Part shown: one piece after another, positions 35,925 to 64,000 of the stretch | How the letters are laid out: the number at the start of each line of letters is the position of its first letter | Position numbering within the stretch: the first letter of the stretch is position 1 | NCBI GenBank assembly: GCA_035353175.1 | Contig: DAOPZC010000003.1 | Coordinates: forward strand, 62,473 to 126,472 | DNA: 64,000 nucleotides | Origin: Kiritimatiellia bacterium | GTDB lineage: Bacteria; Verrucomicrobiota; Kiritimatiellia; RFP12; UBA1067 | Direction: 5' to 3' | Position numbers and translations under genes: made by a program | The notes under the pieces: generated by a model | The model's database searches: none | The model's input: the letters and a program-made list of their open reading frames with translations, nothing else | Told to the model about the DNA's origin: nothing

Positions 35925-36229
35925 AATAACACTCCTTGTTTGCCACACCGGAAGTTCGACCGAGAACCCAAATTTAAATAACCTAAGTTATGTTACATGC
36001 GGGTGCTAAGCGCGGTCAAGGCGCAATGCCCGAAAACGGGGAAAACTTTCGCGAAAAGACGGTCAGCCTTCGGGCGGTCGACGGTCTTTTGAACGTCGGC
36101 CGCGCGTTGGCCTTGCGTGACCGTTCATCACGCGGACGGGGCCGCCCGCCCCAGATGTTCCGCATACGCCACGCACGAACCTTGCCCCTCCCCGCCACCA
36201 ACCGGCGGCCTCCGTACCGCTCAAAACCG

Positions 36230-36259
36230 TTGACACGCTTTGTCGACCCGCCGCATACT
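36230..36259 (+). promoter_or_regulatory. candidate sigma70-like promoter for the LRR protein gene
   Basis: TTGACA, an 18-bp spacer, then CATACT, ~70 nt upstream of the ATG at 36330. This is the best -35/-10 match in the divergent 400-bp spacer. The assignment is inferential. Confidence 0.25.
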
Positions 36260-36329
36260 GATGCCGTTTGATGTCTTTCACATTTTTCGAGATGCGTCTC
36301 CATTTGCCCGTATCAAGAAAGGTGAAGCC

Positions 36330-40228: not shown

Positions 40229-41413
40229 CTATTTCCAACGCTTCAGGGGATGCGAGCGGTTGACCAAGGGTAAAGCGACACGCCCCCCTCCCTGGACGCA
40301 CGATTCAAACACGGCCTGAGTCATCTCCCACGACCTGAGACCGTCCTGAATGCTGATGGCCGGACGGCGATTTTCTTCAATGGCGGCAATGAGGTCATCG
40401 GTAATGATTTTGTTGCGTTCCCGCTGCTTGTCTTTCGTCTGGACGACAGGCGCATCCGGCAGCGGTCTCCAGCCCGAGCTCTTCTTGCCGGGGGCCCAGG
40501 ACGAACTGTCGAACCATAGCACGTTTACCCCCAAGTCGTCTGGAAGGACGCGGATGGAAACCACACCTCGGCTTCCAAAGATGTCGATGCCGAAACGACC
40601 GCCGTTTCCATCGGGGTTCTTCATGGAGTCGAAATAGCCCACCGCACCGCCTTGGAAACCATACATCGCATGAATGCGATCGCCTACGATAGGCCCCAGC
40701 GGTTCGCGAGCCTTGCACACGTCGGCAGGCGTTGCCGTGTGTCCGTTCGTCGTAACATCGGCCGCGCACCACAAGGGTTTTCCGCCCATGAAGAAGCACA
40801 TCAGGTCGAGCACATGTGCGCCGAGTACGATCAGGTCCTCGCCGCCTGCCCGATGGTCCTCTTTGCCGCGGGCACGCGCCTCCAACACGGTGCCGATGAG
40901 ACCTTTTTCGCACACCATTTTCCAAGCGTGCTGTACCTCCGGCATACCGCGAAAATTGAAAGCGATCGCCCACTTCAAGTTCTTCGCCTCGGCGGCGGCC
41001 ACCATTTTGTCACCGCTGGCCAGATCGTCACAGAAGGGTTTCTCGATGAAGCCGTGGGCGCCGACCGCCGCGCAAGCCAGAAGGTACTCCTGATGCTTGA
41101 TGGTGCAACGCGGCCCGACTGCGACCAGGTCAGGTCGTTCTTTCTCAAGCATCTCGCGATAATCCGCATAGTGACGCTCAGCACCGACGGCCTTGGCGTA
41201 CTTTGCCCGCTCACTCTCGACCGGATCCGCCAAAGCGACGTGGACCACATCGTCCCGCAGCGCAAATGCGTGATGGATCCAGTGTCCGTATCCCCCCTGC
41301 TTGCTGTCGCCAATAATACAGGCTTTGTATTTCTTTTTTGACGGCGCGCCCACCGCCGTGGCCGCGACTGCCGCAGATGACACCGCAATGAATTTCCGAC
41401 GGCTGAACTGCAT
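40229..41413 (-). CDS. Tat-exported Gfo/Idh/MocA oxidoreductase
   Basis: Shine-Dalgarno GGGGAGGA. Tat motif MQFSRRKFIAVSSAAVAATAV. ACIIGDSKQGGYGH Rossmann; EKPFCDD. Confidence 0.85.
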   Translation of the reverse strand: MQFSRRKFIAVSSAAVAATAVGAPSKKKYKACIIGDSKQGGYGHWIHHAFALRDDVVHVALADPVESERAKYAKAVGAERHYADYREMLEKERPDLVAVGPRCTIKHQEYLLACAAVGAHGFIEKPFCDDLASGDKMVAAAEAKNLKWAIAFNFRGMPEVQHAWKMVCEKGLIGTVLEARARGKEDHRAGGEDLIVLGAHVLDLMCFFMGGKPLWCAADVTTNGHTATPADVCKAREPLGPIVGDRIHAMYGFQGGAVGYFDSMKNPDGNGGRFGIDIFGSRGVVSIRVLPDDLGVNVLWFDSSSWAPGKKSSGWRPLPDAPVVQTKDKQRERNKIITDDLIAAIEENRRPAISIQDGLRSWEMTQAVFESCVQGGGRVALPLVNRSHPLKRWK

Positions 41414-41658
41414 GATCGATCCTCCCCATGATACGAATCAACTTCATTAGTATCGTTCTTCGCCGAGATTTGGTCAAGAAACTGGACTTGATCCGTGACC
41501 TGCTGACAATCAGGTACGCAACCGTTTTCTCCCTAACGGCCGTCTCTTCGATTTTCACGTGTCTGCGTAAAGATGTCATTGAAGAAACAAGCATCCTCGC
41601 CGTATGCTTAAGGCCTTACCGAGATTGGCCAGGGGAAAATCAATCACAAGGGGGAAAC

Positions 41659-43173
41659 ATGAGGGTAGCGATCATCGCGGCCGCCGCGGGGCTGCTGTGC
41701 AGCGCGGGAGCAGGAGAGATTTCCGGCGCGTTGTCGGGGTCAAGCGCTGTCGATCCCGCCGCATATGGCTTTGCGCCCGACGCGCCGGCGGCGACGAACG
41801 CGGCCGCGTTGCAAAAGGCGCTGGACGGCGGGATGAAACGGGTCCAGGTCTCGCGTGCGGGGGTCTATGGCCTGGACCGGACGGTTTTCATCGACAGCGA
41901 CACGGAGATCGATTTCGCCCCCGGCGTCGTCCTGCAGAAGCGCGCGGCCTACGCCAACATCCTCGTCAACCGCGGGGCCTTCCAATACGCTTGGAACACG
42001 AACATCGCCGTGCGGGGCCTCCGCATCAGCGTGAACGGCTTCCAGTCCATTCCGGGCCCGGACTCTGCGGCGCCCGGCCTGCGCGGGCAGTTCGCGCTCT
42101 ACCATGTGCGGCACGCCCGCGTCTATGATTTCACCTGCCTGGACATCGAGGGCGGGCAGTACTGCTTCCACATCGCAGGCTTCGAGGACGTCATCCTCGA
42201 CGGGTTCGAGATCCGCGGCAAGAAGGACGGCGTCCACGTCAACGCGGGCCGCAACTTCGCCATCCGCAACGGGATCCTCGAAACCGGCGACGACGGCATC
42301 GCGCTCAACGCTGGCGACTGGCCGGGGGGCTGCACGCCCGTCATGGGCAGCATCGAGGACGGGGTCATCGAGAACATCCATGACCTGGCGGGCGGCAAGT
42401 GCAATTTCGCGCGCGTCATCACCGGCGCCTGGACGGACTGGCACAAGGGCATGCGCCTGCAGCGGGGGGACATCTTCCGCGTCGGCCAAAACGTCTACGC
42501 GGTCCACCCCATGCCGCTCGGCACGAACGAATACGTCTCCCTGACCGCGCCGATGCATACGCGCGGGGTGTGGAAGTCGCCGGAGGGCATCCAGTTCCAG
42601 TACCTGCAGAACGACGGCGAGACCCGCGCGGACATCCGCAACGTCGTCTTCCGCGATCTTTTCCTGTATGCCGGACGCCCCATTTCCTGCAGCTGGGAGT
42701 TTGGCGAATACGCCCGTCTGGTCCATCCGGAAATCAAGCCGGCCGACCTGCCCGTCTGCGACATCACGGTGGAGAACGTCTTCTCGCCGACGGCCCGCCC
42801 CGTCATCAGCGGCAACAGCTGCGCGACGCTCCGGCTGGACAACATCCGCGCCAACGGCCCCATCGTGTCGCTGACCAGCCTGCGCGCCCACCCCGCCACC
42901 TGGCGCGTGATCTGCACCGGCACCTATTTCAGCCGACGAGACAACCGCGAGCCTGATTTCCGGTTCGGGGGTTTTGAAGGCGACCTCGACCTCCAGATCG
43001 GCTCCGCGCTGCAAGACCGCGACGTGCGTCTTTCCGTCGCCGGCACGCTCACCTCCGCCCGCGTCAACGGCGAGGCCTCCGTGGACACGCTGGACAACCT
43101 GAAGCCCAAGGCCGGGGATGCCGTCCGCGTCAACAACCGGCGCCGAACATTCAACGGGACGAAATGGGAATAA
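41659..43173 (+). CDS. secreted right-handed parallel beta-helix protein (pectate-lyase/GH28-like fold)
   Basis: Shine-Dalgarno AGGGGGAA; signal peptide. Repeated beta-helix turns (IRGKKDGVHVNAGRNFAIRNGILETGDDGIALNAG...); the N-terminal part resembles pectate-lyase-3 / glycosyl-hydrolase-28-like beta-helix proteins. Confidence 0.7.
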   Translation: MRVAIIAAAAGLLCSAGAGEISGALSGSSAVDPAAYGFAPDAPAATNAAALQKALDGGMKRVQVSRAGVYGLDRTVFIDSDTEIDFAPGVVLQKRAAYANILVNRGAFQYAWNTNIAVRGLRISVNGFQSIPGPDSAAPGLRGQFALYHVRHARVYDFTCLDIEGGQYCFHIAGFEDVILDGFEIRGKKDGVHVNAGRNFAIRNGILETGDDGIALNAGDWPGGCTPVMGSIEDGVIENIHDLAGGKCNFARVITGAWTDWHKGMRLQRGDIFRVGQNVYAVHPMPLGTNEYVSLTAPMHTRGVWKSPEGIQFQYLQNDGETRADIRNVVFRDLFLYAGRPISCSWEFGEYARLVHPEIKPADLPVCDITVENVFSPTARPVISGNSCATLRLDNIRANGPIVSLTSLRAHPATWRVICTGTYFSRRDNREPDFRFGGFEGDLDLQIGSALQDRDVRLSVAGTLTSARVNGEASVDTLDNLKPKAGDAVRVNNRRRTFNGTKWE

Positions 43174-50482: not shown

Positions 50483-52930
50483 TCATCGTTTCGCGGCCTG
50501 CTGCTGCCGAAGCGTCCCGAGCTCTTGCCGGAACCGTTCGAAGAACAAGTCCGCGCGCTTGTTTTCGTCGGCCCACTTCTCGCTGTTGCCGATGAAATAG
50601 AGCCGCGTCCGGCACGCGTCGATCGTGTCTTTGAACTGCGTGGCGTCGCGGGCGAGCACGTCGCCGCTGAACACCTCCACCACGTCGGCCTTGCGCCGCA
50701 GGCTGAACGTGCGCTCGCCGGCCGCGCGCGTGTGGATCGCCAGAAAACTCTTGTCGGCGTAAACGATCTCGTCGGCGTCGCAGAAAAGATGGCAGCCGGC
50801 GCGGCGGGCGATGCCGCGCAGGAGATCGGCGGGCGCCACCACCGACCCGATCCAGATGTCCGTGGCCTTCGAGGTGCAGCGCCTGACCATGGCGGGCTGG
50901 CCGCCCTCTTCGAAACGCGCGAGGACCTCTCCCTCCTCCGACCCGTAGAACCGTTCCGGCAGGTCGCGCGCGGCAGGAACTTGCTGTTTGACGGCCCCGC
51001 TCGCGGGATCAGTCACCCATTCCGGCCGCTCGAAGCTGCCGAAAGCCCGCTGGGGATCGAACCCCTCGAAGGCGCGCGCCCCGGCCTCGGTCAGCTTCAT
51101 GTTCAGCTTGCGCCGCTGGCCCGCCTCGGAATTCAGCGTGAAGCCCAGCAGATCCTTCGTGTATGCGACATCCCGCTCGGGAACCCGGTCCGGATTGAAC
51201 ACGCCGGGCGCGAACATCCACACCAGCACCGCCCCTCGGCGGCGCAGCCGTTTCTCAATCAGCCGGCGCTCGGCATCGCTCAGGCTGAAACAGTTGAGCA
51301 TCAGATACAGCTTGTAGCGCTTTGCATCGCTTGCGAGGATGTCGTCCAGCTCGTAGTAGTCCACCGGCGCGCCCAGGCGGCACGTCTCCTGCACCTTGAA
51401 CGCGTCGATCAGCGACGTCGTGACCGGCCAGGGAGGTCCGGTCAGGATGCTGTCGAGGTCCACCACGGCCGCGATATCCGTATCGCTTGTCCGGTCAAAG
51501 CCCATCGCGGCTTCGCCGCAGTGCTGCATGCGGTCGAACAGCGCGAGGACCGGCTCGTGGTGATACCACTCCTTGCCCATCTGGAACCACCAGCCGTTGC
51601 CGCCCTCGCAGAGCTGATGGGCGAACTCGCGCTGCAGGCAGGCCTGCGTTTCTTCGAGGCTCGGCGGCCGGCCGTACATTGAAGGATTGCCCGGCGCCGG
51701 CTCGGAGAAGTTGGTGCGGATGTCCGACTCGCTGATCCAAAGCTTGCCGTGCTGCTTGAGGCTGGCCATAAGGAAGCGGATGCAGGCGTGCTCGCCGGGG
51801 CCGCGGCGGTTGTACTGGGGCGGGCCCGACCAGAAGTCCACGTCCGGCGAGCGCAGCAGCTCTTTCAGGGTCGCCTGGCCGCCTTCGAGCAACCAGTGAT
51901 TCTGCAAGTAACCGTGGAACATGCCGACCAGCTGCTCGCGGTTGCAGGCCTGCTTCACGGCGTGCGAAAAGATCAGCAGGCTGTCCTCCATGACCTTGTT
52001 GTGCACATAGTAGTAGTCGCGGTTGCGCTGGCCCTTGTCGGCGCCCCAGAACACGCCCGCCTCGGTGGCTTTGCGGCTGAGCGGATCGGGCGGCAGCGCG
52101 GTATCAAAGTCGACCGCGGGATCGTTCCAGGCCGCTCGCAGCTTGCCGACGTCGCCGCCGTATTTGACGCGCAGATAATTGCGGAACGCCTTCAGCATCG
52201 GCTTGGAGAAGTCCAGGGCATACTTGTCGTGGTCGTAGTCGCCCCAGTAGTACCACTCCTCCGTGCCGCCGCCGCAGATGAAGTAGCCGATGATGTTCTT
52301 CGAATAGGCCGACTGCCGGACATGCGTGACGTAGTTGAAAAGCGCCTCGGCCGTTTTCTGCCGCCACACCCCGGAGGCGAAACTCGGGTAGCCGCGTTCC
52401 TCCAGCGGCCGGTCGGTCATGGCATACCATTTGGTGAAATGGTCGCGGGCGCCGTCGTTGAACGTGAGCGTCTCATCCGGATAGTCGCGCGCAAAGTTCC
52501 GCGGGTTGCAGAGATAGAGCCGCAACAGGATGCGCGCGTTCGGCACGCGCTCAAGGAAACGGGCCAGTTGCCCGTCGAGCCGTTTGAACGTCTCCTCCTG
52601 CTCGCCGGGCCACCCGACGCTGCCGACCATTTCGAAATGGACCGGGAAGTCGCGGTCCGCGATCTGCCCGATCTGCTCCAGCGTTCCCGCGCAGCGCGTG
52701 TAGATCATCGGCCCGTAAGGCTTGCCGTCGATCACAAGGGTCGGCACGCCCTGCACGGGCTTGACCCGCGCGATGGACTGGGGCCGGTCGGTGGGCTGCG
52801 CCTTGAAGGCCGGCAGCCGGGCGTCGCTGCCGGGCAGAAAGCCGACGTCAGAGGCCCGCGCCTCGGCGGCCGCCAGCGCGCATGATAGAAAACACAGGCC
52901 GAAGGAAAAGGGCAACGCATGTTTCTTCAT
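50483..52930 (-). CDS. secreted GH42-like glycoside hydrolase
   Basis: Signal peptide. FSKPMLKAFRNYLRVKYGGDVGKLRAAWND matches the GH42 'A..FR.WL..KYG....LN.AWG' block. WYYWGDYDHD and a TIM-barrel-like N-terminal half. Confidence 0.7.
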   Translation of the reverse strand: MKKHALPFSFGLCFLSCALAAAEARASDVGFLPGSDARLPAFKAQPTDRPQSIARVKPVQGVPTLVIDGKPYGPMIYTRCAGTLEQIGQIADRDFPVHFEMVGSVGWPGEQEETFKRLDGQLARFLERVPNARILLRLYLCNPRNFARDYPDETLTFNDGARDHFTKWYAMTDRPLEERGYPSFASGVWRQKTAEALFNYVTHVRQSAYSKNIIGYFICGGGTEEWYYWGDYDHDKYALDFSKPMLKAFRNYLRVKYGGDVGKLRAAWNDPAVDFDTALPPDPLSRKATEAGVFWGADKGQRNRDYYYVHNKVMEDSLLIFSHAVKQACNREQLVGMFHGYLQNHWLLEGGQATLKELLRSPDVDFWSGPPQYNRRGPGEHACIRFLMASLKQHGKLWISESDIRTNFSEPAPGNPSMYGRPPSLEETQACLQREFAHQLCEGGNGWWFQMGKEWYHHEPVLALFDRMQHCGEAAMGFDRTSDTDIAAVVDLDSILTGPPWPVTTSLIDAFKVQETCRLGAPVDYYELDDILASDAKRYKLYLMLNCFSLSDAERRLIEKRLRRRGAVLVWMFAPGVFNPDRVPERDVAYTKDLLGFTLNSEAGQRRKLNMKLTEAGARAFEGFDPQRAFGSFERPEWVTDPASGAVKQQVPAARDLPERFYGSEEGEVLARFEEGGQPAMVRRCTSKATDIWIGSVVAPADLLRGIARRAGCHLFCDADEIVYADKSFLAIHTRAAGERTFSLRRKADVVEVFSGDVLARDATQFKDTIDACRTRLYFIGNSEKWADENKRADLFFERFRQELGTLRQQQAAKR

Positions 52931-53119: not shown

Positions 53120-56100
53120 CTAGCGCACGTCGGCCGCCAGCTTCGCGATCTCGTCGGCGGACAGCACGCGCCGATAGACGCGCACGTCGTCGAGGCAGCC
53201 GCGGAAGCGCGCGCGGTCCATGTCGGCGCTGTGCGCGCCGACGGTGATGGCGTTGCCGGGATTGATGAAGCCGCGGCGCTCGAGCGTGCCGACATCCTTG
53301 CCGTTCACATAGAGACGCATGACCTTGTTGTCGAAGGTCGCGGCCACGTGCGACCACGCGTCGACGGGCAGCGGCTCCGGACCGATCAGCGAATGGCTCC
53401 AGTTCTCGCGCGGCACCTGCCAGTCGGGCCGCCCGTTGCCGAGCCCGAGGCGGTAGCCGTCCGTGCCGGTCGACACCGTGTTGAGCATCCAGCGGTCGCT
53501 CTGTCCCTTTTCGGAGGGTTTGCACCAGAGCGCCACGGTCACGCCGCCAGGGCTGAAGAACGGCGCGGGGACAGTCGCGGTCGCGCCGCCCTCGCCACAG
53601 CGCAGCACCTGACCGCCGCGGCCGGCTTCGCGCACGACGCCCTCGCACTTGAGATTGCAGCCGTTCGGCGAGGCGTCCGCCAAGAGACCGTCGGCCGTCT
53701 GGGACTCGAAGGTCCAGTCGGCCAGCAGGTCGCCGGTGATGCGGATCGACTGCCACGGCATGCGGCTGCCGAAGCCGGCGCGCACGGCCTCGTAGCGCCG
53801 CTGCGGCGGAGGCAGCCCCACGTCTTCGGGAATGATGTCGGTCACCGCCTCCGGCGCCCAAGCGGTGCAGAAGACGCGCTTGATGGCGTTGACGAACGTG
53901 AAGCCCGTGCCGGTGGTCGGCTCGATGTAGTGGCCCTCGCCGAACTCGGTCCAGTTGTCGAAGACGACGATCTTGCTGTCCCAGCGCCCCGCCGGCTTGG
54001 CGTCGACGAGCGCCTTGGCGTCGCGGCAGGCGGCCTCGAAGTTCTCGGCCTTGGGGTCTTTGATGTAGTTGCCGTTGCCGCGTTTGACGCGGCCCCACGG
54101 GCGGTCGTCGCGGCCCATCATCACGTTCGGGATGTCCGGCACGGGGGCCGTGCTGGCGGCGCGGTCGATCCACGTTTGCTTGTAGCGGCTGAGCACGTCC
54201 GCGTGATCGCGGTAAGAGAGCCCCGCCGGGTCCTCGCCGACCGTCTTCAGGCCGGAGGGCGTGACCCCGTAGCCGGAGACCGCGTCCCACCCGCTGGCGG
54301 CGATGTCCGCGCCGAGCTTACCCTGCGCCGCGTCCATGCAGGCGATCACGCGCAGGCCGCTGAAGCCGGCCCTGCGGCACTGCTCGCGCATCTTGTCGAG
54401 CGCGACCTTGGTCTTCTCGGGCCCGCCCAGCTGGGCGAGCATGACGCGCGGCTGCCACACGAAGAGGACCGGCTTGTTCTCGATCTTGAGGTACGAGGGA
54501 TGGGTGAAGTAGTTCTTGATCCAGAACGGCAGCACGTTGTCGAGCAGGTCGGCCTCGTCCTTCACGCCTTTGGCGCAGCCGTTCTCCCACATGATGGTGA
54601 AGGTGAACTGGTCGCGGTATTTGGCGTTGAGGAGTCCCTCGTGGATCGCGTGGCCGAGGCTCTGGCTGATCGTCGGCTCGAAATCGGCGCGGTACCAGCA
54701 GTAGATGAAGCCGTTGATGCCGTGGTCGAGCGCGTACTTGATGTGCCAGTCGGCCACCTCGGGCGTGCCCTCGTCATACCAGCCGATGGCCGGACGTTTC
54801 TCCGGCCACGGCTCGATCCTCTTCCAGCCCCAGTGCGTGCCTTCCTTCCAAAGCGCGCAGTAGTGCATCAGGCTGATATAGTCGGTTTTGGCCGGCTGCG
54901 GCTGCGGCACGTAGCCGGTCTTGGTCATCTCGGGCCACGGCTCGACCTTCAGCGCGAGCTCCTGCACGCTCGTCTCCGCGCCCTTGGAGGCGATTGCCAC
55001 GCGGACGGTGTAGGTGCCGGGACGCTCGGCCCGGATGTGCCAAGTCGCCAGGTCGAAGTCATCCATGCCCAGCCATGCGATGTTCCGCTTCGCGCCGCCG
55101 ATGACCTTGACACCCTTAGGAACCTCAAGCCGCGCGGTGATCCCTTCGGCTTCGCCGCCGACGTTCTGGATGCCGGCCACCACGCTCTCCTCGCGGCCGG
55201 GACGCAGCTTGGCGCGGCCGGCGGCGAGCGAGCGGATGTAGAAGACGGGGGTCCCGATCGGCCGATCCGCCAAGGCCAGCTTGCGGATGCGGACCGGCGC
55301 CGAGACGCCGGAGAAGCTCACCGCGAGGCGACGGAGCTTGCCGGTCCAAGCGTCGGACATCGTGCCGGAAACGACCGTGGGCCGCCCGCCTGACTGCGGC
55401 TGGAAGCTGATCGAGCCCGAGCCCGTGTCGGTCGTGAAGTCGAGCGTGCCGGTCACGCCGCGCCCGCCCGCCTCCACGTCGAGGCAGAGGAACGGATACG
55501 GCGCGAGGTCGACGGACAGCGTCGGGCTCACCAGCATCGCCGTGGCGCCGGGGAAGTCGACGGCGAGCGCGGCCTTCTCCTCTTTGCAGGCCGCGCCGTT
55601 CTTGGCCTGCCAGCCGGCCCACGCCGCGGGGCCGCCCAACACGCGGGCCGCGCCTTGGCTTTCGGAGCCGCCGAAGAGAGAACGCCACAGCGAAGCGAAG
55701 AAGCCGGGCTTGGATTCGGCGGATGCCTCCTCAGCGGGCAGGCCCGCGAGGAGCGCCGCGCGTTCCAGGCTCGGGTTGAAGAGGTCGAGACTCGCCAGCT
55801 CGCCCGCGATCGGGCCGACCTGCACGGGCTTGGAGCCCGGATTGATCCGGCCGAAGCGCGGCTGGCTGAAGGTCTCGCCGTTGATGGTCATCTCCATCGA
55901 CTGGCCGGTCCACGCCGCGCGCACGTCGTACCACGTGTTCGTCTGAATCGCCGGGCCGCGCAGCCGGGTCTCCCACTTGCCCTCGATCTGGACGAAGAAG
56001 ACCAGGTTCCCGCCGTCGCCGGGATTGTCCACGCGCAGCAGATACTCGCCGTCCTTGACGACCAGGTTCTGGGCCCAGCTCTTGTGCGTGTCGAGGCGGA

Positions 56101-56311
56101 AACGGCAGCCGATTTCCAGCCCCGGCCGCAGGCGCAGCTCCGGGCGGTCGGCGGCTTCGACCGGCTTGCCGGCGGAGAGGCGCTTGTCCTGACGGTCGAG
56201 CGCGAAAACGGGCTTACCGGCCGGCTCCGCAGCATCCGCGCGCGGCGCGGCACAGGTTAAAAGCGCCAAAGAAAGCGTGAAAACAGTCCCGATGTTTCTG
56301 ATTGCCTGCAT
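53120..56311 (-). CDS. secreted multidomain protein: N-terminal LamG-like domain, central WbsX/GH99-like glycoside-hydrolase domain, C-terminal LamG-like domain
   Basis: Shine-Dalgarno GAGGGGA precedes the ATG at 56311 (MQAIRNIGTVFTLSLALLTCAAPRADA). Central IGWYDEGTPEVADWHIKYALDHGINGFIYCWYRAD matches the WbsX-like (PF14307, GH99-related) family. C-terminal ...FFSPGGVTVALWCKP...WSHVAATFD...LYVNGKDVG...DDVRVY is LamG-like. The track extends 142 codons upstream of the real start. Confidence 0.75.
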   Translation of the reverse strand: MQAIRNIGTVFTLSLALLTCAAPRADAAEPAGKPVFALDRQDKRLSAGKPVEAADRPELRLRPGLEIGCRFRLDTHKSWAQNLVVKDGEYLLRVDNPGDGGNLVFFVQIEGKWETRLRGPAIQTNTWYDVRAAWTGQSMEMTINGETFSQPRFGRINPGSKPVQVGPIAGELASLDLFNPSLERAALLAGLPAEEASAESKPGFFASLWRSLFGGSESQGAARVLGGPAAWAGWQAKNGAACKEEKAALAVDFPGATAMLVSPTLSVDLAPYPFLCLDVEAGGRGVTGTLDFTTDTGSGSISFQPQSGGRPTVVSGTMSDAWTGKLRRLAVSFSGVSAPVRIRKLALADRPIGTPVFYIRSLAAGRAKLRPGREESVVAGIQNVGGEAEGITARLEVPKGVKVIGGAKRNIAWLGMDDFDLATWHIRAERPGTYTVRVAIASKGAETSVQELALKVEPWPEMTKTGYVPQPQPAKTDYISLMHYCALWKEGTHWGWKRIEPWPEKRPAIGWYDEGTPEVADWHIKYALDHGINGFIYCWYRADFEPTISQSLGHAIHEGLLNAKYRDQFTFTIMWENGCAKGVKDEADLLDNVLPFWIKNYFTHPSYLKIENKPVLFVWQPRVMLAQLGGPEKTKVALDKMREQCRRAGFSGLRVIACMDAAQGKLGADIAASGWDAVSGYGVTPSGLKTVGEDPAGLSYRDHADVLSRYKQTWIDRAASTAPVPDIPNVMMGRDDRPWGRVKRGNGNYIKDPKAENFEAACRDAKALVDAKPAGRWDSKIVVFDNWTEFGEGHYIEPTTGTGFTFVNAIKRVFCTAWAPEAVTDIIPEDVGLPPPQRRYEAVRAGFGSRMPWQSIRITGDLLADWTFESQTADGLLADASPNGCNLKCEGVVREAGRGGQVLRCGEGGATATVPAPFFSPGGVTVALWCKPSEKGQSDRWMLNTVSTGTDGYRLGLGNGRPDWQVPRENWSHSLIGPEPLPVDAWSHVAATFDNKVMRLYVNGKDVGTLERRGFINPGNAITVGAHSADMDRARFRGCLDDVRVYRRVLSADEIAKLAADVR

Positions 56312-56489
56312 GAATTTTCCCCTCTTGTTCAAACCCCAATATCGGCAAGACCATAACAAATCCGGCGCGGCGAAAGCGATAGAAAACCTGTGAACCCCGT
56401 GCGTCGCGTCGTTCCTCCAGAAGCCGATGCCGCCCGAGCGCTCGCCTAGCGCCACACCTTGAAACGGTCGCCGAACGGTCTGGGCGGTT

Positions 56490-58805
56490 TTACTGCACGC
56501 GAGGCGGCGGGACCGCCTGGCCGGCGCACTGGGCGGCCTGCTCCTGCCGGCCGTACGTGCCGTAGAACGCGGCATTGCCGTCGAGCCACACGCAAAGCCG
56601 CAGCCGGTCGTCATCCGACAGCCGAATGCGGCCCCTGTGGCTGTTGCCGTCGAGAACCTTGAGCAGCGGGCTCTCGTCGGCACCCATATGGCCCGGCAGG
56701 GTGACGGCCTGAGCGATGCTCTTGTCTCCCCATTCATACCACCGCACCTGCCCTTTCAGGCTGTTGTACGCTTTGCTGAACTCGCCTTCGGGCGTGCCGG
56801 TCAGAATGAGCGTGCCGCGCTGCGGCCCTTTCGCGCCGTCGTGACAACGCACGCAATGGCGGTCGAGCACCGGCTGCACCAGCCGCGGAAAACACCACGG
56901 CCGCGTACCGTCCGGCCCGGCGAGTATCTTCGACAGCGCATGGCGCGACGCGAGCGGCTGACGATCCGGCGGCGGGCTCTCTGGCCGCTCGTGGCAACCC
57001 ACGCAGCTTCGGCGCTCCCCGGGCTGCAGATAGACCGCGCTGCGCATCGTGTGAACGGCCCGGCCTGACGCGTCCACCGCCTGAAAGAAAAGCGGCCGGC
57101 GCGCAGGCGCACGAAAGAAGGCCGAGCCGTCGGACTCAACCGGCACCGTGCCCAGCAGCATACGCGCACACTCCGCATTGGCGTAGCCGATGCGCGGCTG
57201 GTTGGCCACGTGCGTCTCGCTCTTGGGCAGCAGCTGAAAGATCCGCAGGCTGCGAACCGGACGGTCAGACGGCAGCGGCGTCAGGCTGGCACGCACGTCG
57301 CTGAGGACAAGCTCCCCCTCGTCGCCCAAAGCCGGGTCACACGAACGGGTCGGTGCCGGCGGTTTGGGGCGCGGGCCCAGAGGCGTCGGATACATCGACG
57401 AGATCCCCGGCGCGCGATACAGCAGCTCCATGTTTCCGAAGCGGTCGAAGTAGTAAAGGCCCGTCTCGCCGTCGCGCACGACCTTCGGCCCCATGCCCGG
57501 CAACGGATCGAAGCTGAACGAGACCAGGTAATAGTCCTCCGACAGCGGACAGGGGCTGTGGAAATAGCTGTCGGGCCAGCCGGCGGCCTCCGGAAAACAG
57601 ACCTCCGGCGTGAGCACTTCCAGCGAATCGAAATTGTCCTCGCCGCTCTTCGGGTCGAGGCTGGTCCGCGAGGGATCGACCACCACCAGCGAGCCGCCCA
57701 CGGCGGCGTGATGCGCGCCCGCCACAAACACGATCCGGTTCGAGCCGGGAATCGCCCGCGGCTGATAGCAGGCGTTGATCCGCATGGTGTAGTTGCCGAA
57801 GAGAATGCTCGGGCTGGTGCCGTCCGGGTTGCTCGTCCAGATACCGTGAAACTGGGCGGCCGAGCGATCGACGTAGTCCCAGCGGCTATAGGCGATGCGC
57901 CCGTCGGCGAGCACGGACGGATGCCACTCGTTCGTCTCGTGCCAAGAAAGCGTCTGCACGCCGCTGCCGTCGCCGTTCATCCGGTGCAGGGTGTAGGTCG
58001 GCAGCGGCTCCCACGGATTGTGGCATCGTCCGAAGCCGCCGCGCCGCGTCGACATAAACGCCACGCCGCCGTCCGGCAGCGGGCACGGATCGAAATCGTC
58101 GTTCGGCCCGTCGGTCAACTGCCGCAGCCCCGAACCGTCGGTCTGCACGGTGTAGAGGTGAAAGCAGCGACGCTGAGGCGAACGGAAGTCGGGCTTCTCC
58201 GGCGCGCGCTCGGCATAGGCGAAATAGATTGTGTGCCCGTCCCAGCCCAGCGAAAGCGTCGTGAAATTGCCGCGCGGAAGCCGCCCGGCGATCAGATCGC
58301 GCGTCCTCAGCGACCGTCCTGGCGTCTCCAGCACGTACACGCCGCCGCCCGCGATATCGCCGTAGTCGTAATAATAGCCCAAGTATTCGTGCAACATTTG
58401 GGTGACGAACCGCCGTCGCTGCATGAAGACCACCGGACGAGCACCCAGCAAAGGATTCTTCAGCGCCGCCTCGCGGCCAATCCAGCGGATGCCGCGGTAC
58501 AGGGACAGCCGCTCCGCCTCGGGGAGCGTCGCGGACTTCGCCGCTGCGGTTTGTAGTTTCGCCAGGTCGGCCCGTTCGCGGGTGAGCTCCAGAGGCCGGG
58601 GGGCGCGACTGAGCCCGTCCAGCAGGCGGGCGACGCGCTGACACGCGAGCTGGATCGCCTCGGGCGACTGTGCGAGGCGACCGGCCCGTTTCTCCTGCGC
58701 CGCCCAGTCCGCCTCCACGGTCGCGCGAAAGGCCGCGTCATCGTCAACCGCGCCCGCCAGTACCGCAACCGACACGAGGGCGACCAGAATTATTTTCCCG
58801 TTCAT
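56490..58805 (-). CDS. secreted TolB/PD40-type beta-propeller protein with a C-terminal di-haem (2x CXXCH) cytochrome-c-like region
   Basis: Shine-Dalgarno AAGGGAAGAGG precedes the ATG at 58805 (MNGKIILVALVSVAVLAGA). PD40-like blades (LTDGPNDDFDPCPLPDGGVAFMSTRRG; WHPSVLADGRIAYSRWDY; TSNPDGTSPSILFGN). C-terminal CVGCHE and CVRCHD are haem-c attachment motifs. Confidence 0.75.
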   Translation of the reverse strand: MNGKIILVALVSVAVLAGAVDDDAAFRATVEADWAAQEKRAGRLAQSPEAIQLACQRVARLLDGLSRAPRPLELTRERADLAKLQTAAAKSATLPEAERLSLYRGIRWIGREAALKNPLLGARPVVFMQRRRFVTQMLHEYLGYYYDYGDIAGGGVYVLETPGRSLRTRDLIAGRLPRGNFTTLSLGWDGHTIYFAYAERAPEKPDFRSPQRRCFHLYTVQTDGSGLRQLTDGPNDDFDPCPLPDGGVAFMSTRRGGFGRCHNPWEPLPTYTLHRMNGDGSGVQTLSWHETNEWHPSVLADGRIAYSRWDYVDRSAAQFHGIWTSNPDGTSPSILFGNYTMRINACYQPRAIPGSNRIVFVAGAHHAAVGGSLVVVDPSRTSLDPKSGEDNFDSLEVLTPEVCFPEAAGWPDSYFHSPCPLSEDYYLVSFSFDPLPGMGPKVVRDGETGLYYFDRFGNMELLYRAPGISSMYPTPLGPRPKPPAPTRSCDPALGDEGELVLSDVRASLTPLPSDRPVRSLRIFQLLPKSETHVANQPRIGYANAECARMLLGTVPVESDGSAFFRAPARRPLFFQAVDASGRAVHTMRSAVYLQPGERRSCVGCHERPESPPPDRQPLASRHALSKILAGPDGTRPWCFPRLVQPVLDRHCVRCHDGAKGPQRGTLILTGTPEGEFSKAYNSLKGQVRWYEWGDKSIAQAVTLPGHMGADESPLLKVLDGNSHRGRIRLSDDDRLRLCVWLDGNAAFYGTYGRQEQAAQCAGQAVPPPRVQ

Positions 58806-59006
58806 CCTCTTCCCTTTCTGTGACTTCACCCGCTGCAAGTGACGCAAAGTCGATCTATATCCACATGAGGCAGGATTTTACATGCCCGCAACGACACTTT
58901 CAAGCAGCCCGCCCTCAAGAAGCCAAGGCGGAAAGGACGTGCAAGCGCGCGCCCCTCCGTATGCCGCAAGGATCAGCACAACCGCGCGGCGCGTGTCGCC
59001 GGACCT

Positions 59007-59296: not shown

Positions 59297-61840
59297 TCAC
59301 CGCCGGACCGTCAGCTCGCGGATGCCAAAGGCAGGCAGCGTCAGAGCATCGCCGCCGCAGCTGACCGCGCACGGCGTCTCGCCGAGGTTGTTCACGACCG
59401 CTCGGCACTCGCCCTGGCTGACCCGGAAGGCCGTCACGCGCGCAGACGGCGCGTCGAGCGCGATCAGGCTCTGCTGCGCGGGCCACTCTCCGTTGCCCGG
59501 CCGGACGCGGAACAGCGGCACGCCGACGCGCAGCCGGTCCGCAGCCGCGGCCACCTCCGCAGGGGGGCACAGCACAAGGCCGAAGCGGTGCTCGTACGCG
59601 CCCAGAAACGGGTCGCCGCCCGACGTGATCAGGTGGTCGGCGTAGCCGCTGGGAAGAATTTTGCACTCGGGCCGCTTGTCCGCCCGGCCCTGGATGGAGG
59701 CCCCCAGGCTCGCCGCCACAACGCCGTCCAGCGGCGCGACGCGGAACGACTGGTTCCCGCCCAGCGCCACCACGGCGAAAGCCGCATCGCCGGAAGCGAT
59801 GGAGGCGAAGCGTTGCGCCGCGATGAACGACGGCTCGGGATTGGCGTGCTCGATCGTTGCGTAAGGGATGTCGTAGCGGACGCGGCCGGGCCAGCCGCGA
59901 AACTCCAAGAGCAAGCCCGCGGGGTCGTACTTGCCCTTCCCGATCCGGCGCGGCATGTCGACCTGGACGCAGGCCGTCACCTCGACGCGGTCCAGCCGGA
60001 GACCGATCACCAGCCGGATCCAGACGGCCCACGCCAGCTCGGTGAAGACCTCCAGCTCGGGCCCGAACGGCGTCTCCCGCACGCGAGCCGTCGCGCGGGC
60101 CCAGTCCGGCCGCACCTCTTCCGCCGCTGCGGCGCCCGAAGGATCGCTGAGCTTGAAAGGCGCGACCGCGATCTCGATCTGGCGCGAGCCCTCGGCCACA
60201 AGCAGGCGTCCCTCCGTCAGTCCCGCGCGCTGGCCTTCGGCCGACACCTCGCTGCCCGCCCGCCACTCCGCGGCCGGCTGCGCGCCCGGCTGCTCCCGCA
60301 ATCCGAGCAGGCAATAGCCGTAAGCGGGAAGCTCGACCCGCGCGGAGGCAGTCCACTGTCCCGCGCGGCAGGCGAGATCCCCCGGCAGCGGCGAACCGTC
60401 CGCGGCCACGAGCGCCAGCGGGCCGTCGACCGGGAGCGAGACCTCCGCCGTGCGGGAGGGCGCGGGGTTCAGCGCGAGCACGTAGCCCGCGCAGCCCGGC
60501 GCGGGCGTGCGGAGGCGCGCCGCCACCTGCTGCGCGAAGCGCGCCAGCAGCTCGTTCGAGTAGGCGCGTGACGCGTCCAGCACGGTCTCGCGGTGAAGCG
60601 TGCGCGGCGTCCAGGGAAACCAGCCGCTGGAGTCGGAGTTGAGGCCGATCAGCGCGTGGTGCCAGGCGCGCGAGAGCACGGTCGGCTCGCCGCCCAGGGC
60701 CAGGCAAAGGGCTTCGGTCTCCGGGAACTCGCCCACCTCTTCGAAGCGCGTGTCCCATGGGTTGTCGGGCGGCGTCGTCCACGCTTGCTTCAGCGGCACG
60801 TCCACCGGTCCGAGGCGGTGAAGCGCGGCCGCGGCATGGGCAAACCCCGCGGCGCGCAGGGCGTCCAGCGTTTTCACGGCGTGCCCGTGCCAGCTCATGT
60901 CCATCGGATGAGAGGTCCAGCGCGAGAAGCTGGGGCTGGGCTCGCGGTCCTCCTGCGCCTGGCCGAACGGATGGGGCGCCGCGCACGTGACGTGAATGCC
61001 GACCTCCTGCGTGTACCGCTCGACCGTGGTCCAGCGGATGATTTTGCCCTTTTGCGCCAGACGCGCGATCTCCGCGACGTAGGCATCGATGTCGCCAAGT
61101 TGCTCGAAGTCGCCGCCGGCCATGATGAAACTGCCGTCCGCGTGCGAGTCGTAATACGCCTCAAGCTGGCCGAGCCGGATCGTGCGGAGGTCGAGGGGAA
61201 AAACGTCTACCGCGCTGCCGTCGATTCCCTGCACGCGCCGCGGCCGGTCCCAGCCGTCGGGCATAACGATCAGCCGCCGGACGCCGATCTGGTTCATGAC
61301 ATACGGCAGCTGGGGATGAAACACAATCTCCTGGGGGAAGAAGGCCGAGCAATCGGGCTGCAGCTCCCGGCGCATCAGCTCCATGCTGACGCGGCTCGCG
61401 ACCAGGTCGGACTCTTCGTCCGACGCGAGCGCGTGGCTCGCGGCGTACTGGCACCCCACCATCGCGATCTGCCGGCGGTCCACCAGCGGCTTCAGCTCTT
61501 CCAAAAACCCGGGCGCATAGCGCTTCAGGCTGAGCAGCGTCAGCCCCGGGAAGTCGATGTGGGCCGTCACCTCCGGATGGGCCTTGAGCGCGCGCAGGCC
61601 TGTGGCGTAGATGCGGGGGAACTTCTCGCGGATCTCCTGCTTGGTGTAGCGGTCGTAGCACATGTTGCCGTGCAGCAGGAACGAGAGGTAAACGGTCTTG
61701 GGCTTCGCGGGCTCCGGCGCGGACGCGGCCGACAGCGGGACGCCGACAGCCGCAAGCCCCGCCACCCCCTGCAACACGCGCCTCCTGGAAACGCACCCGC
61801 ACGTCTGGAAAATCCCCCGACTCCGCGACTGCTCAAACAT
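59297..61840 (-). CDS. Tat-exported putative glycoside hydrolase (GH38/GH57-like N-terminal domain)
   Basis: Shine-Dalgarno AGGAGGGG precedes the ATG at 61840. Tat-like SRRRVLQGVAGLAAVGVPLSAASA. N-terminal VYLSFLLHGNMCYDRY...IDFPGLTL resembles the metal-binding N-domain of GH38/GH57-type enzymes. The remainder carries no signature I can name. Confidence 0.6.
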   Translation of the reverse strand: MFEQSRSRGIFQTCGCVSRRRVLQGVAGLAAVGVPLSAASAPEPAKPKTVYLSFLLHGNMCYDRYTKQEIREKFPRIYATGLRALKAHPEVTAHIDFPGLTLLSLKRYAPGFLEELKPLVDRRQIAMVGCQYAASHALASDEESDLVASRVSMELMRRELQPDCSAFFPQEIVFHPQLPYVMNQIGVRRLIVMPDGWDRPRRVQGIDGSAVDVFPLDLRTIRLGQLEAYYDSHADGSFIMAGGDFEQLGDIDAYVAEIARLAQKGKIIRWTTVERYTQEVGIHVTCAAPHPFGQAQEDREPSPSFSRWTSHPMDMSWHGHAVKTLDALRAAGFAHAAAALHRLGPVDVPLKQAWTTPPDNPWDTRFEEVGEFPETEALCLALGGEPTVLSRAWHHALIGLNSDSSGWFPWTPRTLHRETVLDASRAYSNELLARFAQQVAARLRTPAPGCAGYVLALNPAPSRTAEVSLPVDGPLALVAADGSPLPGDLACRAGQWTASARVELPAYGYCLLGLREQPGAQPAAEWRAGSEVSAEGQRAGLTEGRLLVAEGSRQIEIAVAPFKLSDPSGAAAAEEVRPDWARATARVRETPFGPELEVFTELAWAVWIRLVIGLRLDRVEVTACVQVDMPRRIGKGKYDPAGLLLEFRGWPGRVRYDIPYATIEHANPEPSFIAAQRFASIASGDAAFAVVALGGNQSFRVAPLDGVVAASLGASIQGRADKRPECKILPSGYADHLITSGGDPFLGAYEHRFGLVLCPPAEVAAAADRLRVGVPLFRVRPGNGEWPAQQSLIALDAPSARVTAFRVSQGECRAVVNNLGETPCAVSCGGDALTLPAFGIRELTVRR

Positions 61841-61931
61841 ATCCCCTCCTGTTTTAAACATTTCTCTGATCATATAGAACCTTTCACAGTCGCAGCGCAT
61901 ACCGCGCGGCAATGCAAGCGGAGGCAGCGGC

Positions 61932-63149
61932 TCAGCGCGTCTTCTCCGCCAAAGGCGCAACGGGCGTGACCGACAGGTCCATGCGGCCGTCACCGCGGTT
62001 GATCGTGCAGATGATGTACTTGTCCCCGCAGACAAACTGCGGGTGCGGGTCGGGGTGGAGCTTGCTGGGTTTGTCTTTAGTGGTGAAGGCAGGCCGTTCG
62101 GCATAGAGGAAGACTTCCTTCTTCGTCTCCGCGTTGTAGAAGCCCACCTGCCACGCGCAACCGCGATACCAAGGGCCGACGCTGTTGTCGTAAGTGAAAT
62201 AGCGCCGGTCCCGCGTCATCGTAGCGTGAGCCGCGTGGACGGGGGCGATGCGCCGCTGCTGGCCGGTGGCCAGGTCGTAATAGATGACGCCGTATTCCTT
62301 GCCGTGGCTGCAGTAGTAGAAACCCAAGCCGTCGTCGGCCCAGTATTCGTGGGTGGCGTAGTTGTTCATCGGCGGGACCACGCGTCGTTTGCCGTTGGGC
62401 TCGACCAGCAGCAGGCGGGGATAGACGCCGTCGATGTTCTGGATGCGGTGCTCGACTTTGTCGGTCCCCGTCCACCGGGTTTCGTGGGCGCACAGGGCCA
62501 GCCGGCCGTTCACGGGATTGACCTGCCCGTGGTTCACGCAGACGGATTCCTCGCCCCACTTCTCGAATCGGCCGGTTTTAATATCCAGCATGCCTTGGAT
62601 GAAGCGGTCGTCCACGCGCGCGTCCATAAACACCTGGGCGCGGTCGGGCGTCAGCGTCACATGGGTCGCATAGCCTGACACGTTGGTGCCTTCGGCCTTG
62701 AGCTGTGCCGGGATCTCGCACAGCTTCTCCTTCGCGGGCGCGTCGGCCCGCAGGTTCAACTTGTAAAACCCGCCGGACTCAAACCAGTACAGGAGGGCCG
62801 ACTCCGTATCGAGGAAGGGAATGCTGCCGCGGATCTCCAGCGGCCTGACCTCATCCTTGAGCAGATCGGCCAGTGCGAAGGTTTTCTGGTTGCGTCGATC
62901 GCCGCCCGACACGTCGAACACGATAAAGCGTCCGTCCTCGGTCATCGACTTCTGGGTGAAATAGAGGCTCTGCTGATTCGCTGCGACCCGCGTTTCGAGG
63001 ATGTAGGAAACGACGCCCGAGGCGGGCTCGACGTATTTGCGGAAAAGCTTCGAGGTCTCCGGAGTGTACACCGCCAGCGGGAGAGACTCCACCGCATGGC
63101 ACGACACCGCAAAGAGTGAGAACAGCCACGGCAGCAGACAAGACTTCAT
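61932..63149 (-). CDS. secreted oligogalacturonate lyase-like (PL22-like) beta-propeller protein
   Basis: Shine-Dalgarno GGGGAGG precedes the ATG at 63149. Signal peptide MKSCLLPWLFSLFAVSCHA. About 405 aa with ...HPDPHPQFVCGDKYIICT... and repeated propeller blades, resembling the Ogl/PL22 family. The assignment is tentative. Confidence 0.5.
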   Translation of the reverse strand: MKSCLLPWLFSLFAVSCHAVESLPLAVYTPETSKLFRKYVEPASGVVSYILETRVAANQQSLYFTQKSMTEDGRFIVFDVSGGDRRNQKTFALADLLKDEVRPLEIRGSIPFLDTESALLYWFESGGFYKLNLRADAPAKEKLCEIPAQLKAEGTNVSGYATHVTLTPDRAQVFMDARVDDRFIQGMLDIKTGRFEKWGEESVCVNHGQVNPVNGRLALCAHETRWTGTDKVEHRIQNIDGVYPRLLLVEPNGKRRVVPPMNNYATHEYWADDGLGFYYCSHGKEYGVIYYDLATGQQRRIAPVHAAHATMTRDRRYFTYDNSVGPWYRGCAWQVGFYNAETKKEVFLYAERPAFTTKDKPSKLHPDPHPQFVCGDKYIICTINRGDGRMDLSVTPVAPLAEKTR

Positions 63150-63410: not shown

Positions 63411-64000
63411 CATGAGAAGTACGCGGAGAGAGTTTGTGTGTCGTATGGCCGCGGGCGCCGCCGCGGCGGTTGCCGCGCCGGCGATCCTGCCGTCGTCGGC
63501 GCTGGGAGCCTCCGGGCAGACGGCGCCGGGCAACCGGGTCGCCGTCGGGCTGATCGGCATGGGCAAGATGATGTGGGGGCACCTGCGCGGCTGCCTCAGC
63601 CGCGAGGATGTCCAGGTGGTCGCGATCTGCGATGTCGAGCGGAACCGCCTCAAGGTCTGCCAGGACCTCGTCACGGAAACCTATTCCAAGCGCTTCGGCC
63701 AAGCCTACAAGGGGGTGGCGGTCCACCACGACTTCCGCGAGTTGCTCGCCCGCCCCGACATCGAGGCGGTGATGATCGCCACGCCCACCAACTGGCACGC
63801 CATTCAGGCGGTCGACGCCATGAAGGCCGGCAAGGACGTCTACTGCGAGAAACCGCTGGCGCTGACCGTCCGCGAGGCTCAGGCGGTCGCCGAGGCGGCC
63901 CGCCGCTACGGCCGCATCTTTCAGGTGGGCAGCCAGCAGCGCTCCGACTACAACTTCCGCTTCGCCTGCGAGCTGGTGCGCAACGGCGCCATCGGCAAGC
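63411..64000 (+). CDS. Tat-exported Gfo/Idh/MocA oxidoreductase (partial; continues beyond window end)
   Basis: Shine-Dalgarno GGGAGG precedes the ATG at 63411. MRSTRREFVCRMAAGAAAAVAAPA (Tat). VAVGLIGMGKMMWGH Rossmann; ICDVERNR; MIATPTNWHA; YCEKPLALTVREA. Confidence 0.8.

Follow-up and report, generated by a model that had tools for sequence, protein, structure and literature searches.

An HzsA-related dihaem propeller protein of a Kiritimatiellia bacterium and the possible glycan link of its family

A 64,000-nucleotide stretch from the metagenome-assembled genome (MAG) of a Kiritimatiellia bacterium (contig DAOPZC010000003.1, positions 62,473 to 126,472; hereafter the window) carries a complete gene on its minus strand (56490..58805), which encodes a protein of 771 amino acids plus stop. 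The protein is, almost beyond doubt, a member of the HzsA-related family (Pfam PF18582), whose namesake is the alpha subunit of hydrazine synthase from anaerobic ammonium-oxidising (anammox) bacteria. Its sequence makes secretion and the binding of two c-type haems very probable. The best explanation of its role is a Sec-exported, periplasmic, stand-alone dihaem redox enzyme with a glycan-derived substrate; as a complete statement, this explanation may equally well turn out right or wrong. The family has already been named by NCBI and discussed in print (PMC12758564), and the gene itself is an ordinary member of it. What is new relative to the literature is that the family is very large, that its members mostly stand alone, and that a sizeable minority of the longer members carry carbohydrate-binding modules (CBMs).

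Family membership is indicated by sequence, profile and structure. In a Pfam scan, residues 517-606 match PF18582 (HZS_alpha) with 83.3 bits against a cut-off of 26.6 (E=1.8e-23). PF18582 is also precomputed on all 120 close homologues among the matches listed, and NCBI names close homologues 'HzsA-related protein'. A sequence search of the PDB gave hydrazine synthase alpha (5c2v_A) as its sole match (phmmer E=3.8e-10), and a profile of 42 diverse family members aligns to the same chain in four collinear segments (E=5.4e-34). An AlphaFold2 (AF2) model built on 57 orthologues (predicted local distance difference test score (pLDDT) 75.8, predicted template modelling score 0.80) was compared with the PDB using Foldseek; 5c2v_A is the only whole-length match (E=4e-25, about 800 columns). 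All three domains of the HzsA architecture are present: propeller, middle domain and C-terminal haem domain. An earlier, sequence-only reading of this DNA had described a propeller fused to a dihaem tail and did not recognise the relationship to HzsA. As one of two options, it proposed kinship with the planctomycete PSCyt/PSD proteins. That relationship was rejected, as no PSCyt or PSD model is matched even at E<=1, where the complete Pfam list is HZS_alpha, Paired_CXXCH_1, Cytochrome_CBB3, PD40 and Tll0287-like; the two cytochrome models (Paired_CXXCH_1 and Cytochrome_CBB3) stay below threshold. PSCyt1-3 and PSD1-5 are likewise large exported c-type cytochromes restricted to the Planctomycetes-Verrucomicrobia-Chlamydiae (PVC) group, often fused to CBMs and found near sulfatases (PMC5615132). 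Their architecture differs, however, from the propeller and HZS_alpha middle domain seen here, and there is no sequence relation.

The features of the gene all lie on the minus strand. Residues 21-115 (58461..58745) are modelled as an N-terminal four-helix domain (AF2 helices 4-40, 48-66, 75-89 and 96-115; pLDDT about 85-96); this domain precedes the three-domain plan. It is followed by a six-bladed beta-propeller of the TolB/YWTD type (residues about 122-480; 57366..58442). The HZS_alpha middle domain (residues 517-606; 56988..57257) is a beta-sandwich which ends in the first CXXCH motif and is aligned to HzsA chain residues 502-560. The C-terminal domain (residues 634-771; 56493..56906), aligned to HzsA chain residues 639-765, is cytochrome-like and mostly helical in the model (helices 639-650, 678-684, 708-724, 731-743 and 753-760). 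The propeller had been read from the letters as being of the TolB/PD40 type. At the level of fold this holds: the likeness to TolB/PD40 propellers is strong, and TolB and YWTD receptor propellers are nearest in structure comparison. The models themselves are not reached, since PD40 scores 12 bits against a cut-off of 20.9 and the TolB equivalog TIGR02800 scores 14.1 bits against 343. TolB also differs in having neither haem domains nor the conserved C/H/D/Y/R loops of HzsA-related proteins.

There are exactly two CXXCH motifs in the 771-residue protein, as the sequence-only reading had stated: CVGCH at residues 601-605 and CVRCH at residues 651-655. Shuffling the protein sequence 20,000 times never produced two or more such motifs. 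Across all frames of at least 150 codons in the window, CXXCH is confined to one reading frame, that of this gene. In the phmmer alignment to 5c2v_A the two motifs fall over CSGCH and CAMCH, the attachment sites of haems alpha-I and alpha-II. From this alignment C601-V-G-C604-H605 (56991..57005) is predicted to be the haem I site, equivalent to haem alpha-I, and C651-V-R-C654-H655 (56841..56855) the haem II site, equivalent to haem alpha-II. Orthologues lacking these cysteines or histidines, which the earlier reading had named as grounds for giving up a haem protein, were not found: C601, C604, H605, C651, C654 and H655 are invariant in the 57 orthologues and in two diverse paralogue alignments, the histidine of each motif being as invariant as its cysteines. 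At least two CXXCH are kept in 118 of 118 full-length close homologues and in 114 of 119 full-length distant representatives, with a median spacing of 51 residues; the lengths and match ranges of the five distant representatives without both motifs fit truncated open reading frames (ORFs). On this pattern of motifs, two covalently bound haems are to be expected with considerable confidence. Some family members have four CXXCH: P0144 (1,774 aa), in which the whole HzsA-related unit is apparently duplicated in tandem, and P0166 (2,267 aa) and P0186 (1,429 aa), which have two extra motifs outside the core.

Candidate axial ligands can be named for both haems. H723 (56637..56639) is a candidate distal, bis-His ligand of haem II, from the orthologue alignment and the HzsA profile alignment. 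It is invariant in the orthologues, and nearly all family members have a histidine in the corresponding G-H-H/Y loop. The G-H-H loop that includes H723 aligns to HzsA chain residue 745 (His772), with an ambiguity of one to two residues in the loop; in HzsA, His772 is the distal ligand of the bis-His haem alpha-II (PMC12758564). M587 (57045..57047), 14 residues before the first CXXCH, is a candidate sixth ligand or pocket residue of haem I. It is 98% conserved among the 42 diverse family members and is an alanine in HzsA.

HzsA itself (kuste2861; PDB 5c2v and 5c2w) is known from anammox bacteria. The three-domain core and both CXXCH motifs are common to HzsA and the present protein, and the distal-histidine loop of haem alpha-II can be aligned between them. 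The two proteins are only about 19% identical, however, and no hzsB or hzsC partner is near the gene; the host of the protein is a Kiritimatiellia MAG, whereas HzsA belongs to a Brocadiia anammox bacterium. In HzsA the proximal ligand of haem alpha-I is Tyr591, and a zinc ion is held by the displaced His587 together with Cys303 (PMC12758564; PMC12607021). The 74 residues between H605 and Y680 contain no tyrosine, and hence no Tyr591 equivalent. Cys303 (chain residue 276, in 'YGNCDG') aligns to Y339 (in 'FGNYT'), and thus the cysteine ligand is absent. The hydrazine synthase alpha equivalog of NCBIfam (NF052339) gives 49.7 bits against a cut-off of 800. A tblastn search of the 64-kb window with a beta-gamma-like protein from another locus (L005:6835-8682) found no such gene or paralogue (best E=0.076). 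True hydrazine synthase alpha was thus rejected as an identity, because the equivalog fails, the Tyr591 and Cys303 equivalents are absent and no beta-gamma partner lies within 64 kb.

Homologues of HzsA outside the anammox bacteria have been described as clades I-IV (Hagglund et al. 2025); they have lost Tyr591 and Cys303, and the conclusion drawn was that they are unable to form hydrazine (PMC12758564). That study called them few, concentrated on those paired with beta-gamma-like genes and proposed no function. The present protein resembles clades I-IV in its Pfam domain, in the canonical histidine ligation predicted for haem I and in its occurrence in Planctomycetota and their relatives. It differs in that the orthologue group is mostly stand-alone, with a partner gene adjacent in 5 of 85 loci. 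For the distal histidine of haem alpha-II, reported absent from clade I (PMC12758564), the protein has a candidate in the aligned loop.

Conservation in the family is not limited to the haem surroundings. Among paralogues of 30-55% identity it peaks in the propeller blades of residues 221-340 and in the middle domain. Three propeller motifs stand out. STRRGGFGRCH (residues 252-262; 58020..58052) has S252, R254, R260 and C261 conserved in at least 95% of the 42 diverse family members, and these residues are not conserved in HzsA. In RWDYVDR (residues 308-314; 57864..57884), a region not aligned to HzsA, R308, W309, D310, Y311, D313 and R314 each reach 90-98% conservation in the family. In AGAHHA (residues 362-367; 57705..57722), H365 and H366 are 95% conserved and are aligned to P-Y-M in HzsA. 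These near-invariant motifs are a feature of the HzsA-related protein that HzsA lacks. The AF2 model is otherwise confident and has low-confidence loops at residues 135-150, 258-266, 312-318, 364-369, 401-410, 533-545 and 690-700. Several of them coincide with the most conserved motifs of the family; STRRGGFGRCH overlaps the loop at 258-266 and AGAHHA the loop at 364-369. This combination in the model suggests a cofactor- or ligand-dependent site beyond the reach of prediction, as such loops would be expected to have low pLDDT because the cofactor or ligand is absent from the prediction. Propeller motifs this close to invariance speak for a role beyond that of an electron shuttle.

The family is seen mainly in MAGs of the PVC group, and all records retrieved with an orthologue are MAGs. 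Close homologues, with 60-92% identity over their full length, are found in MAGs of Kiritimatiellia, Planctomycetota, Verrucomicrobiota and Omnitrophota; orthologues remain 60-70% identical across these four groups. The planctomycetal hosts belong to Pirellulales, Thermoguttaceae, Phycisphaerae and Sedimentisphaerales. In a collection of species-representative genomes, 301 stretches encode a relative; RWDYVDR was one of the two peptide patterns used to retrieve them. Cluster representatives (50% identity) were scanned exhaustively with HMMER, which yielded 8,490 clusters at E<=1e-3; at E<=1e-30 there are 1,498. The orthologue group can duplicate within one genome: two close copies, L025 and L075 (CAZURK010000088.1 and CAZURK010000054.1; 61-63% identity to the query), occur in a single Pirellulaceae MAG.

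Longer paralogues with N- or C-terminal extensions were surveyed for domain fusions with a Pfam scan of 43 proteins. N-terminal carbohydrate-binding modules are present in about 14. F5/8 type C (NedA-like galactose-binding) domains occur in seven and NPCBM in four; CBM_4_9, Laminin_G_3 and CBM_AftD are found in one protein each. FGE-sulfatase domains are attached in two paralogues, an extra cytochrome c domain in four, and CCP_MauG/RoxA-like domains in one. By analogy, the attachment of CBMs to a conserved core matches the pattern of carbohydrate-active enzymes (CAZymes). CBM fusion of a parallel kind has been reported for PSCyt proteins of Verrucomicrobia, which are unrelated (PMC5615132). 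The fusions in the 43 paralogues make it plausible that the family is linked to sugar chemistry. The protein itself has no Pfam domain of the glycoside hydrolase (GH), polysaccharide lyase (PL), CBM or auxiliary activity (AA) type, and CAZyme annotation would probably miss it, as the sequence-only reading had predicted.

Propellers which hold a cofactor wired to a cytochrome are found in cytochrome cd1 nitrite reductase, in the quinohaemoprotein alcohol dehydrogenases that use pyrroloquinoline quinone (PQQ) and in the fungal AA12 pyranose dehydrogenases. The AA12 enzymes combine a propeller and a cytochrome domain with a CBM. These enzymes are analogous in design only, as the Cytochrom_D1 and PQQ Pfam models were matched by other proteins but not by this one, and no binding signature for d1 haem or PQQ was found in it.

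Genes around the orthologues were compared by clustering all ORFs of 84 related loci and the window (85 loci in total). A conserved CAZyme operon was rejected: no neighbour from the window belongs to any cluster that recurs beside the orthologues in the 84 loci. The sequence-only reading had built its functional argument on the CAZyme-rich context of the gene; this context is not kept elsewhere, and the operon argument is weak. The pairing with a LamG-WbsX gene seen in the window is not repeated either, although one locus has a WbsX-domain protein as the nearest upstream gene. The only strongly recurrent neighbour is a gene for an Fe-type (class III) alcohol dehydrogenase. It lies directly downstream on the same strand, at a distance of 10-273 nt, in 16 loci by clustering, and it is the nearest downstream gene in 17 of 67 non-redundant loci by Pfam; the loci recorded with it are L004, L007, L008, L017, L018, L019, L026, L034, L044, L046, L067, L071, L078, L079 and L083. 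L090 has an aldo-keto reductase there instead. The dehydrogenase is cytoplasmic and generic by NCBIfam, reaching no equivalog cut-off, and the window has no gene for it. The downstream gene is followed in some loci by an SSF symporter, and SSF symporters are found in 10 loci overall. The adjacency of the alcohol dehydrogenase is the only association clearly above plausible background.

Other neighbours are less frequent. Sulfatases are present in 17 loci (adjacent in seven), a ceramidase-like secreted protein in 14, URO-D/MtaA-like proteins in 11 and heparinase II/III-like proteins in three. Gfo/Idh/MocA_C2 proteins of the twin-arginine translocation (Tat) type occur in 11 of the 85 loci (about 13%). 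AP_endonuc_2 (xylose-isomerase-like) is the nearest upstream gene in 5 of 70 loci. GH127 is directly adjacent in one Kiritimatiellia-like and one Thermoguttaceae locus, and hence in two phyla. Combinations found in a single locus are GH42, GH67N and DUF6259 near an orthologue; 3keto-disac_hyd with AP_endonuc_2 and GH20; and an ABC sugar transporter with beta-helix proteins. One operon joins the orthologue to Gfo/Idh/MocA_C2, AP_endonuc_2, URO-D and a GH120-like protein; 5.6 kb upstream of its orthologue there is a gene (L091:1081-2358 (+)) for a 425-residue multihaem cytochrome (Paired_CXXCH_1, with faint matches to NrfB-, c554- and MtrC-like proteins). In 5 of the 85 loci (L005:6835-8682 (+), L015, L039, L041 and L049) the orthologue lies beside a gene for a YNCE-type propeller with a CCP/MauG-like dihaem part (two CXXCH). 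This protein resembles the fused beta-gamma hydrazine-synthase-like partner (PMC12758564).

The function proposed here would begin with Sec export and the subsequent attachment of two haems c per protein. Haem I, bound by C601 and C604 with H605 as a canonical proximal ligand, unlike the Tyr/Zn arrangement of HzsA, would lie, as in HzsA, between the middle domain and the propeller. The loops STRRGGFGRC261H, RWDYVDR and AGAH365H366A may form a substrate pocket at haem I and possibly a second metal site. Haem II (C651, C654, H655 and H723) would act as a low-spin bis-His relay of electrons to or from an external partner. The protein would thus be a stand-alone redox enzyme, not a scaffold or a simple shuttle; on the sequence evidence the balance tips slightly towards an enzyme rather than a shuttle. 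CBM fusions in the family and the transporter and alcohol dehydrogenase neighbours suggest a small glycan-derived substrate (a sugar, a keto-sugar or a sugar-derived alcohol or aldehyde) and not nitrogen oxides. This assignment of the substrate is tentative, falling somewhat short of an even chance. Conversion in the periplasm would be followed by import of the product and by alcohol or aldehyde redox chemistry in the cytoplasm.

A number of points weigh against this proposal. The window's own CAZyme neighbours do not recur beside the orthologues, and about a third of the loci have no recurrent neighbour of any kind. PVC genomes abound in sulfatase and Gfo/Idh/MocA genes, and finding one within 10 kb of an orthologue may be background. 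F5/8 type C domains can bind proteins as well as glycans. Many of the hosts ferment anaerobically, and for such cells it is not obvious what would accept or donate the electrons in vivo. With M587 as sixth ligand, haem I could be a His/Met electron-transfer haem with no open site. That the propeller motifs lie near haem I, and H723 near haem II, is deduced from the homology to HzsA. No HzsA homologue has a confirmed function (PMC12758564), and useful literature on a glycoside 3-dehydrogenase with cytochrome c was not found.

The strongest competing explanation is the main idea of the sequence-only reading, a pure electron-transfer cytochrome which would re-oxidise Tat-exported Gfo/Idh/MocA or other periplasmic oxidoreductases and use its propeller as a docking platform. 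Three Tat-type Gfo/Idh/MocA genes lie in the window and a fourth just outside it, and elsewhere such a gene is sometimes in one operon with AP_endonuc_2 and the orthologue. The bis-His character of haem II, the possible His/Met ligation of haem I by M587 and the additional cytochrome c domain of some paralogues would all suit a shuttle. The frequency of Gfo/Idh/MocA among the 85 loci is, however, by rough estimate about the chance density for PVC genomes. Gfo/Idh/MocA enzymes use NAD(P), and to our knowledge none donates directly to a c-type cytochrome. A shuttle also leaves unexplained both the CBM fusions and the 90-98% conserved Cys/His/Asp/Tyr/Arg loops of the propeller. What survives of the earlier idea of a sugar-linked redox partner is the sugar link, which the CBM fusions make plausible; the argument from the window's operon is weak, and the conserved propeller motifs suggest more than a shuttle. 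A pure shuttle is considered rather unlikely.

An enzyme of nitrogen oxides or hydroxylamine, in an HzsA-like or ancestral complex whose beta-gamma-like propeller and CCP/MauG partner is encoded elsewhere, is improbable. HzsA is the sole characterised relative, the YNCE-propeller and CCP_MauG gene adjacent in a few loci matches the alpha/beta-gamma pairing (PMC12758564), and in one paralogue CCP_MauG/RoxA-like domains are fused to the core. Against this stand the failed HzsA equivalog and the missing Tyr591 and Cys303 equivalents. The partner, which was not found in the 64 kb of the window, is absent from about 94% of orthologue loci; nitrogen-cycle genes were not seen in any neighbourhood; and for the non-anammox homologues the formation of hydrazine has been judged impossible (PMC12758564).

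A non-redox binding or scaffold protein of the TolB type, whose CXXCH motifs bind metal, form disulfides or carry purely structural haems, would suit a propeller fold closest to binding modules (TolB and YWTD receptor propellers), the sub-threshold cytochrome models and the lack of ccm/ccs maturation genes among those of the window, but it is very improbable, since each motif matches, position by position in the alignment, a motif that bears haem in the HzsA crystal structure, the protein is exported, the motif histidines are as invariant as the cysteines and accompanied by a conserved distal candidate, and 64 kb of a genome of several Mb says nothing about ccm/ccs.

The gene lies in an ORF spanning 56490..58847 (-). 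The ATG at 58805 is likely to be its start codon. It is preferred because it gives 771 residues, has a ribosome-binding site close upstream (purine-rich, of the GGGAAGAGG type, immediately 5' of the ATG) and matches the database protein P0001, from a Kiritimatiellia MAG, which is the encoded protein at 100% identity and coverage. The gene order of the window recurs on a 225-kb JGI contig and on ENA contigs. Residues 1-20 (MNGKIILVALVSVAVLAGAV; 58746..58805) are signal-peptide-like on inspection, and the N-terminus reads MNGKIILVALVSVAVLAGA|VDDD, which resembles a Sec signal peptide. The signal peptide of the sequence-only reading is thereby borne out, as a comparable hydrophobic N-terminal stretch precedes the conserved EADWAAQE motif in 49 of 57 orthologues. 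A sigma-70-like promoter match (TTGAAA-17-TAAAAT; 58875..58903 (-)) lies 70 nt 5' of the ATG in an intergenic gap of 491 nt; the consensus scan gave one site against 0.3 expected, which is a consensus match only and no proof of function. Rfam and tRNA scans of the whole window found nothing.

Downstream of the gene on the same strand is a gene for a secreted protein with LamG, WbsX/GH99-like and LamG_3 domains by Pfam (53120..56326 (-)). The gap between the two is 34-163 nt, depending on the start call, and contains no terminator-like site. Because of this short same-strand gap and the lack of a terminator-like site, the LamG-WbsX gene is probably co-transcribed with the dihaem gene; co-transcription with the further downstream secreted protein genes is plausible. 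Several details of this neighbourhood had been given differently before. The LamG-WbsX gene had been placed upstream and the GH57-like gene downstream, which is the reverse of their order on the minus strand, where 53120-56326 is downstream and 59297-61843 upstream. The description of 59297-61843 as GH38/57-like has one weak match to its credit, a GH57 4-alpha-glucanotransferase at only E=0.003. For 61932-63149, called PL22-like, there is no Pfam, NCBIfam or PDB match, and that label is unverified. An 'all-CAZyme operon' was an overstatement, as the neighbours include several orphan secreted proteins that match no family. No significant Pfam or NCBIfam match was obtained for 50483-52930 (-), 59297-61843 (-), 61932-63149 (-), 10595-14092 (+) and 41428-43173 (+), nor a PDB match for the three that were searched. 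These five large proteins lie among glycan-related genes, and several have secretion-type N-termini; they are candidate orphan glycan-active proteins.

Tat-exported Gfo/Idh/MocA proteins had rightly been placed nearby. The three genes in the window have Tat-type RRxF motifs: 38493-39869 (-) with SRRSFL, 40229-41413 (-) with SRRKFI and 63412-64000 (+), which runs to the end of the window, with TRREFV. The fourth, on the JGI contig, adjoins a gene (L085:464-4063) for a 1,199-residue protein with ThuA, HEAT and two F5/8-type-C domains. Elsewhere in the window, 27264-35948 (-) encodes a giant autotransporter-style surface protein of 2,894 residues, with at least eight PATR repeats and an N-terminal signal-like sequence. 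It adjoins 36240-38348 (+), which encodes a 702-residue BspA-type leucine-rich-repeat protein (LRR_5, E=8e-123, five stretches). A 1,195-residue CBM_4_9 and GH42-like protein (18345-21932 (-)) is followed by a 713-residue secreted protein of the metallo-beta-lactamase fold (16195-18336 (-)), an unusual pairing in a glycan cluster.

A broader reading can be formulated for the family. In it, the HzsA-related proteins of PVC bacteria would make up a very large and so far unrecognised class of redox enzymes that depend on haem c, act on carbohydrates and belong to the 'auxiliary activity' type. Substrates derived from glycans would be oxidised, or changed in some other way, in the propeller pocket, which possibly holds a Cys/His-bound metal by haem I; modular CBMs would direct the enzymes to different glycans; and anammox HzsA would have been recruited from this stock. 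Taken as a whole, with pocket, CBM targeting and HzsA origin, this reading is speculative and unlikely to hold in every part. The HZS_alpha/PF18582 literature that was found consists of anammox papers only, and no paper linking PF18582 proteins to glycans was found.

PF18582 is used as an hzsA marker in DRAM-based annotation pipelines (PMC9325076). Non-anammox relatives in PVC bacteria, which number in the thousands, can therefore be miscalled as evidence of anammox. PVC bacteria have many uncharacterised exported cytochromes encoded near sulfatases and GHs (PMC5615132); the HzsA-related proteins are a second, structurally defined family of exported cytochromes and an entry point to PVC glycan degradation. 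The family is also tractable, as it offers a solved relative, a compact stand-alone member of 771 residues and conserved candidate active-site residues for mutagenesis. For HzsA, an ancestry in a stock of periplasmic redox proteins linked to glycans or sugars is indicated, and this can be tested. The size of the family, its independence from beta-gamma partners, the conserved propeller site and the CBM fusions together offer a testable starting point for work on what may be a new class of haem enzymes linked to glycans, and on how hydrazine synthase arose.

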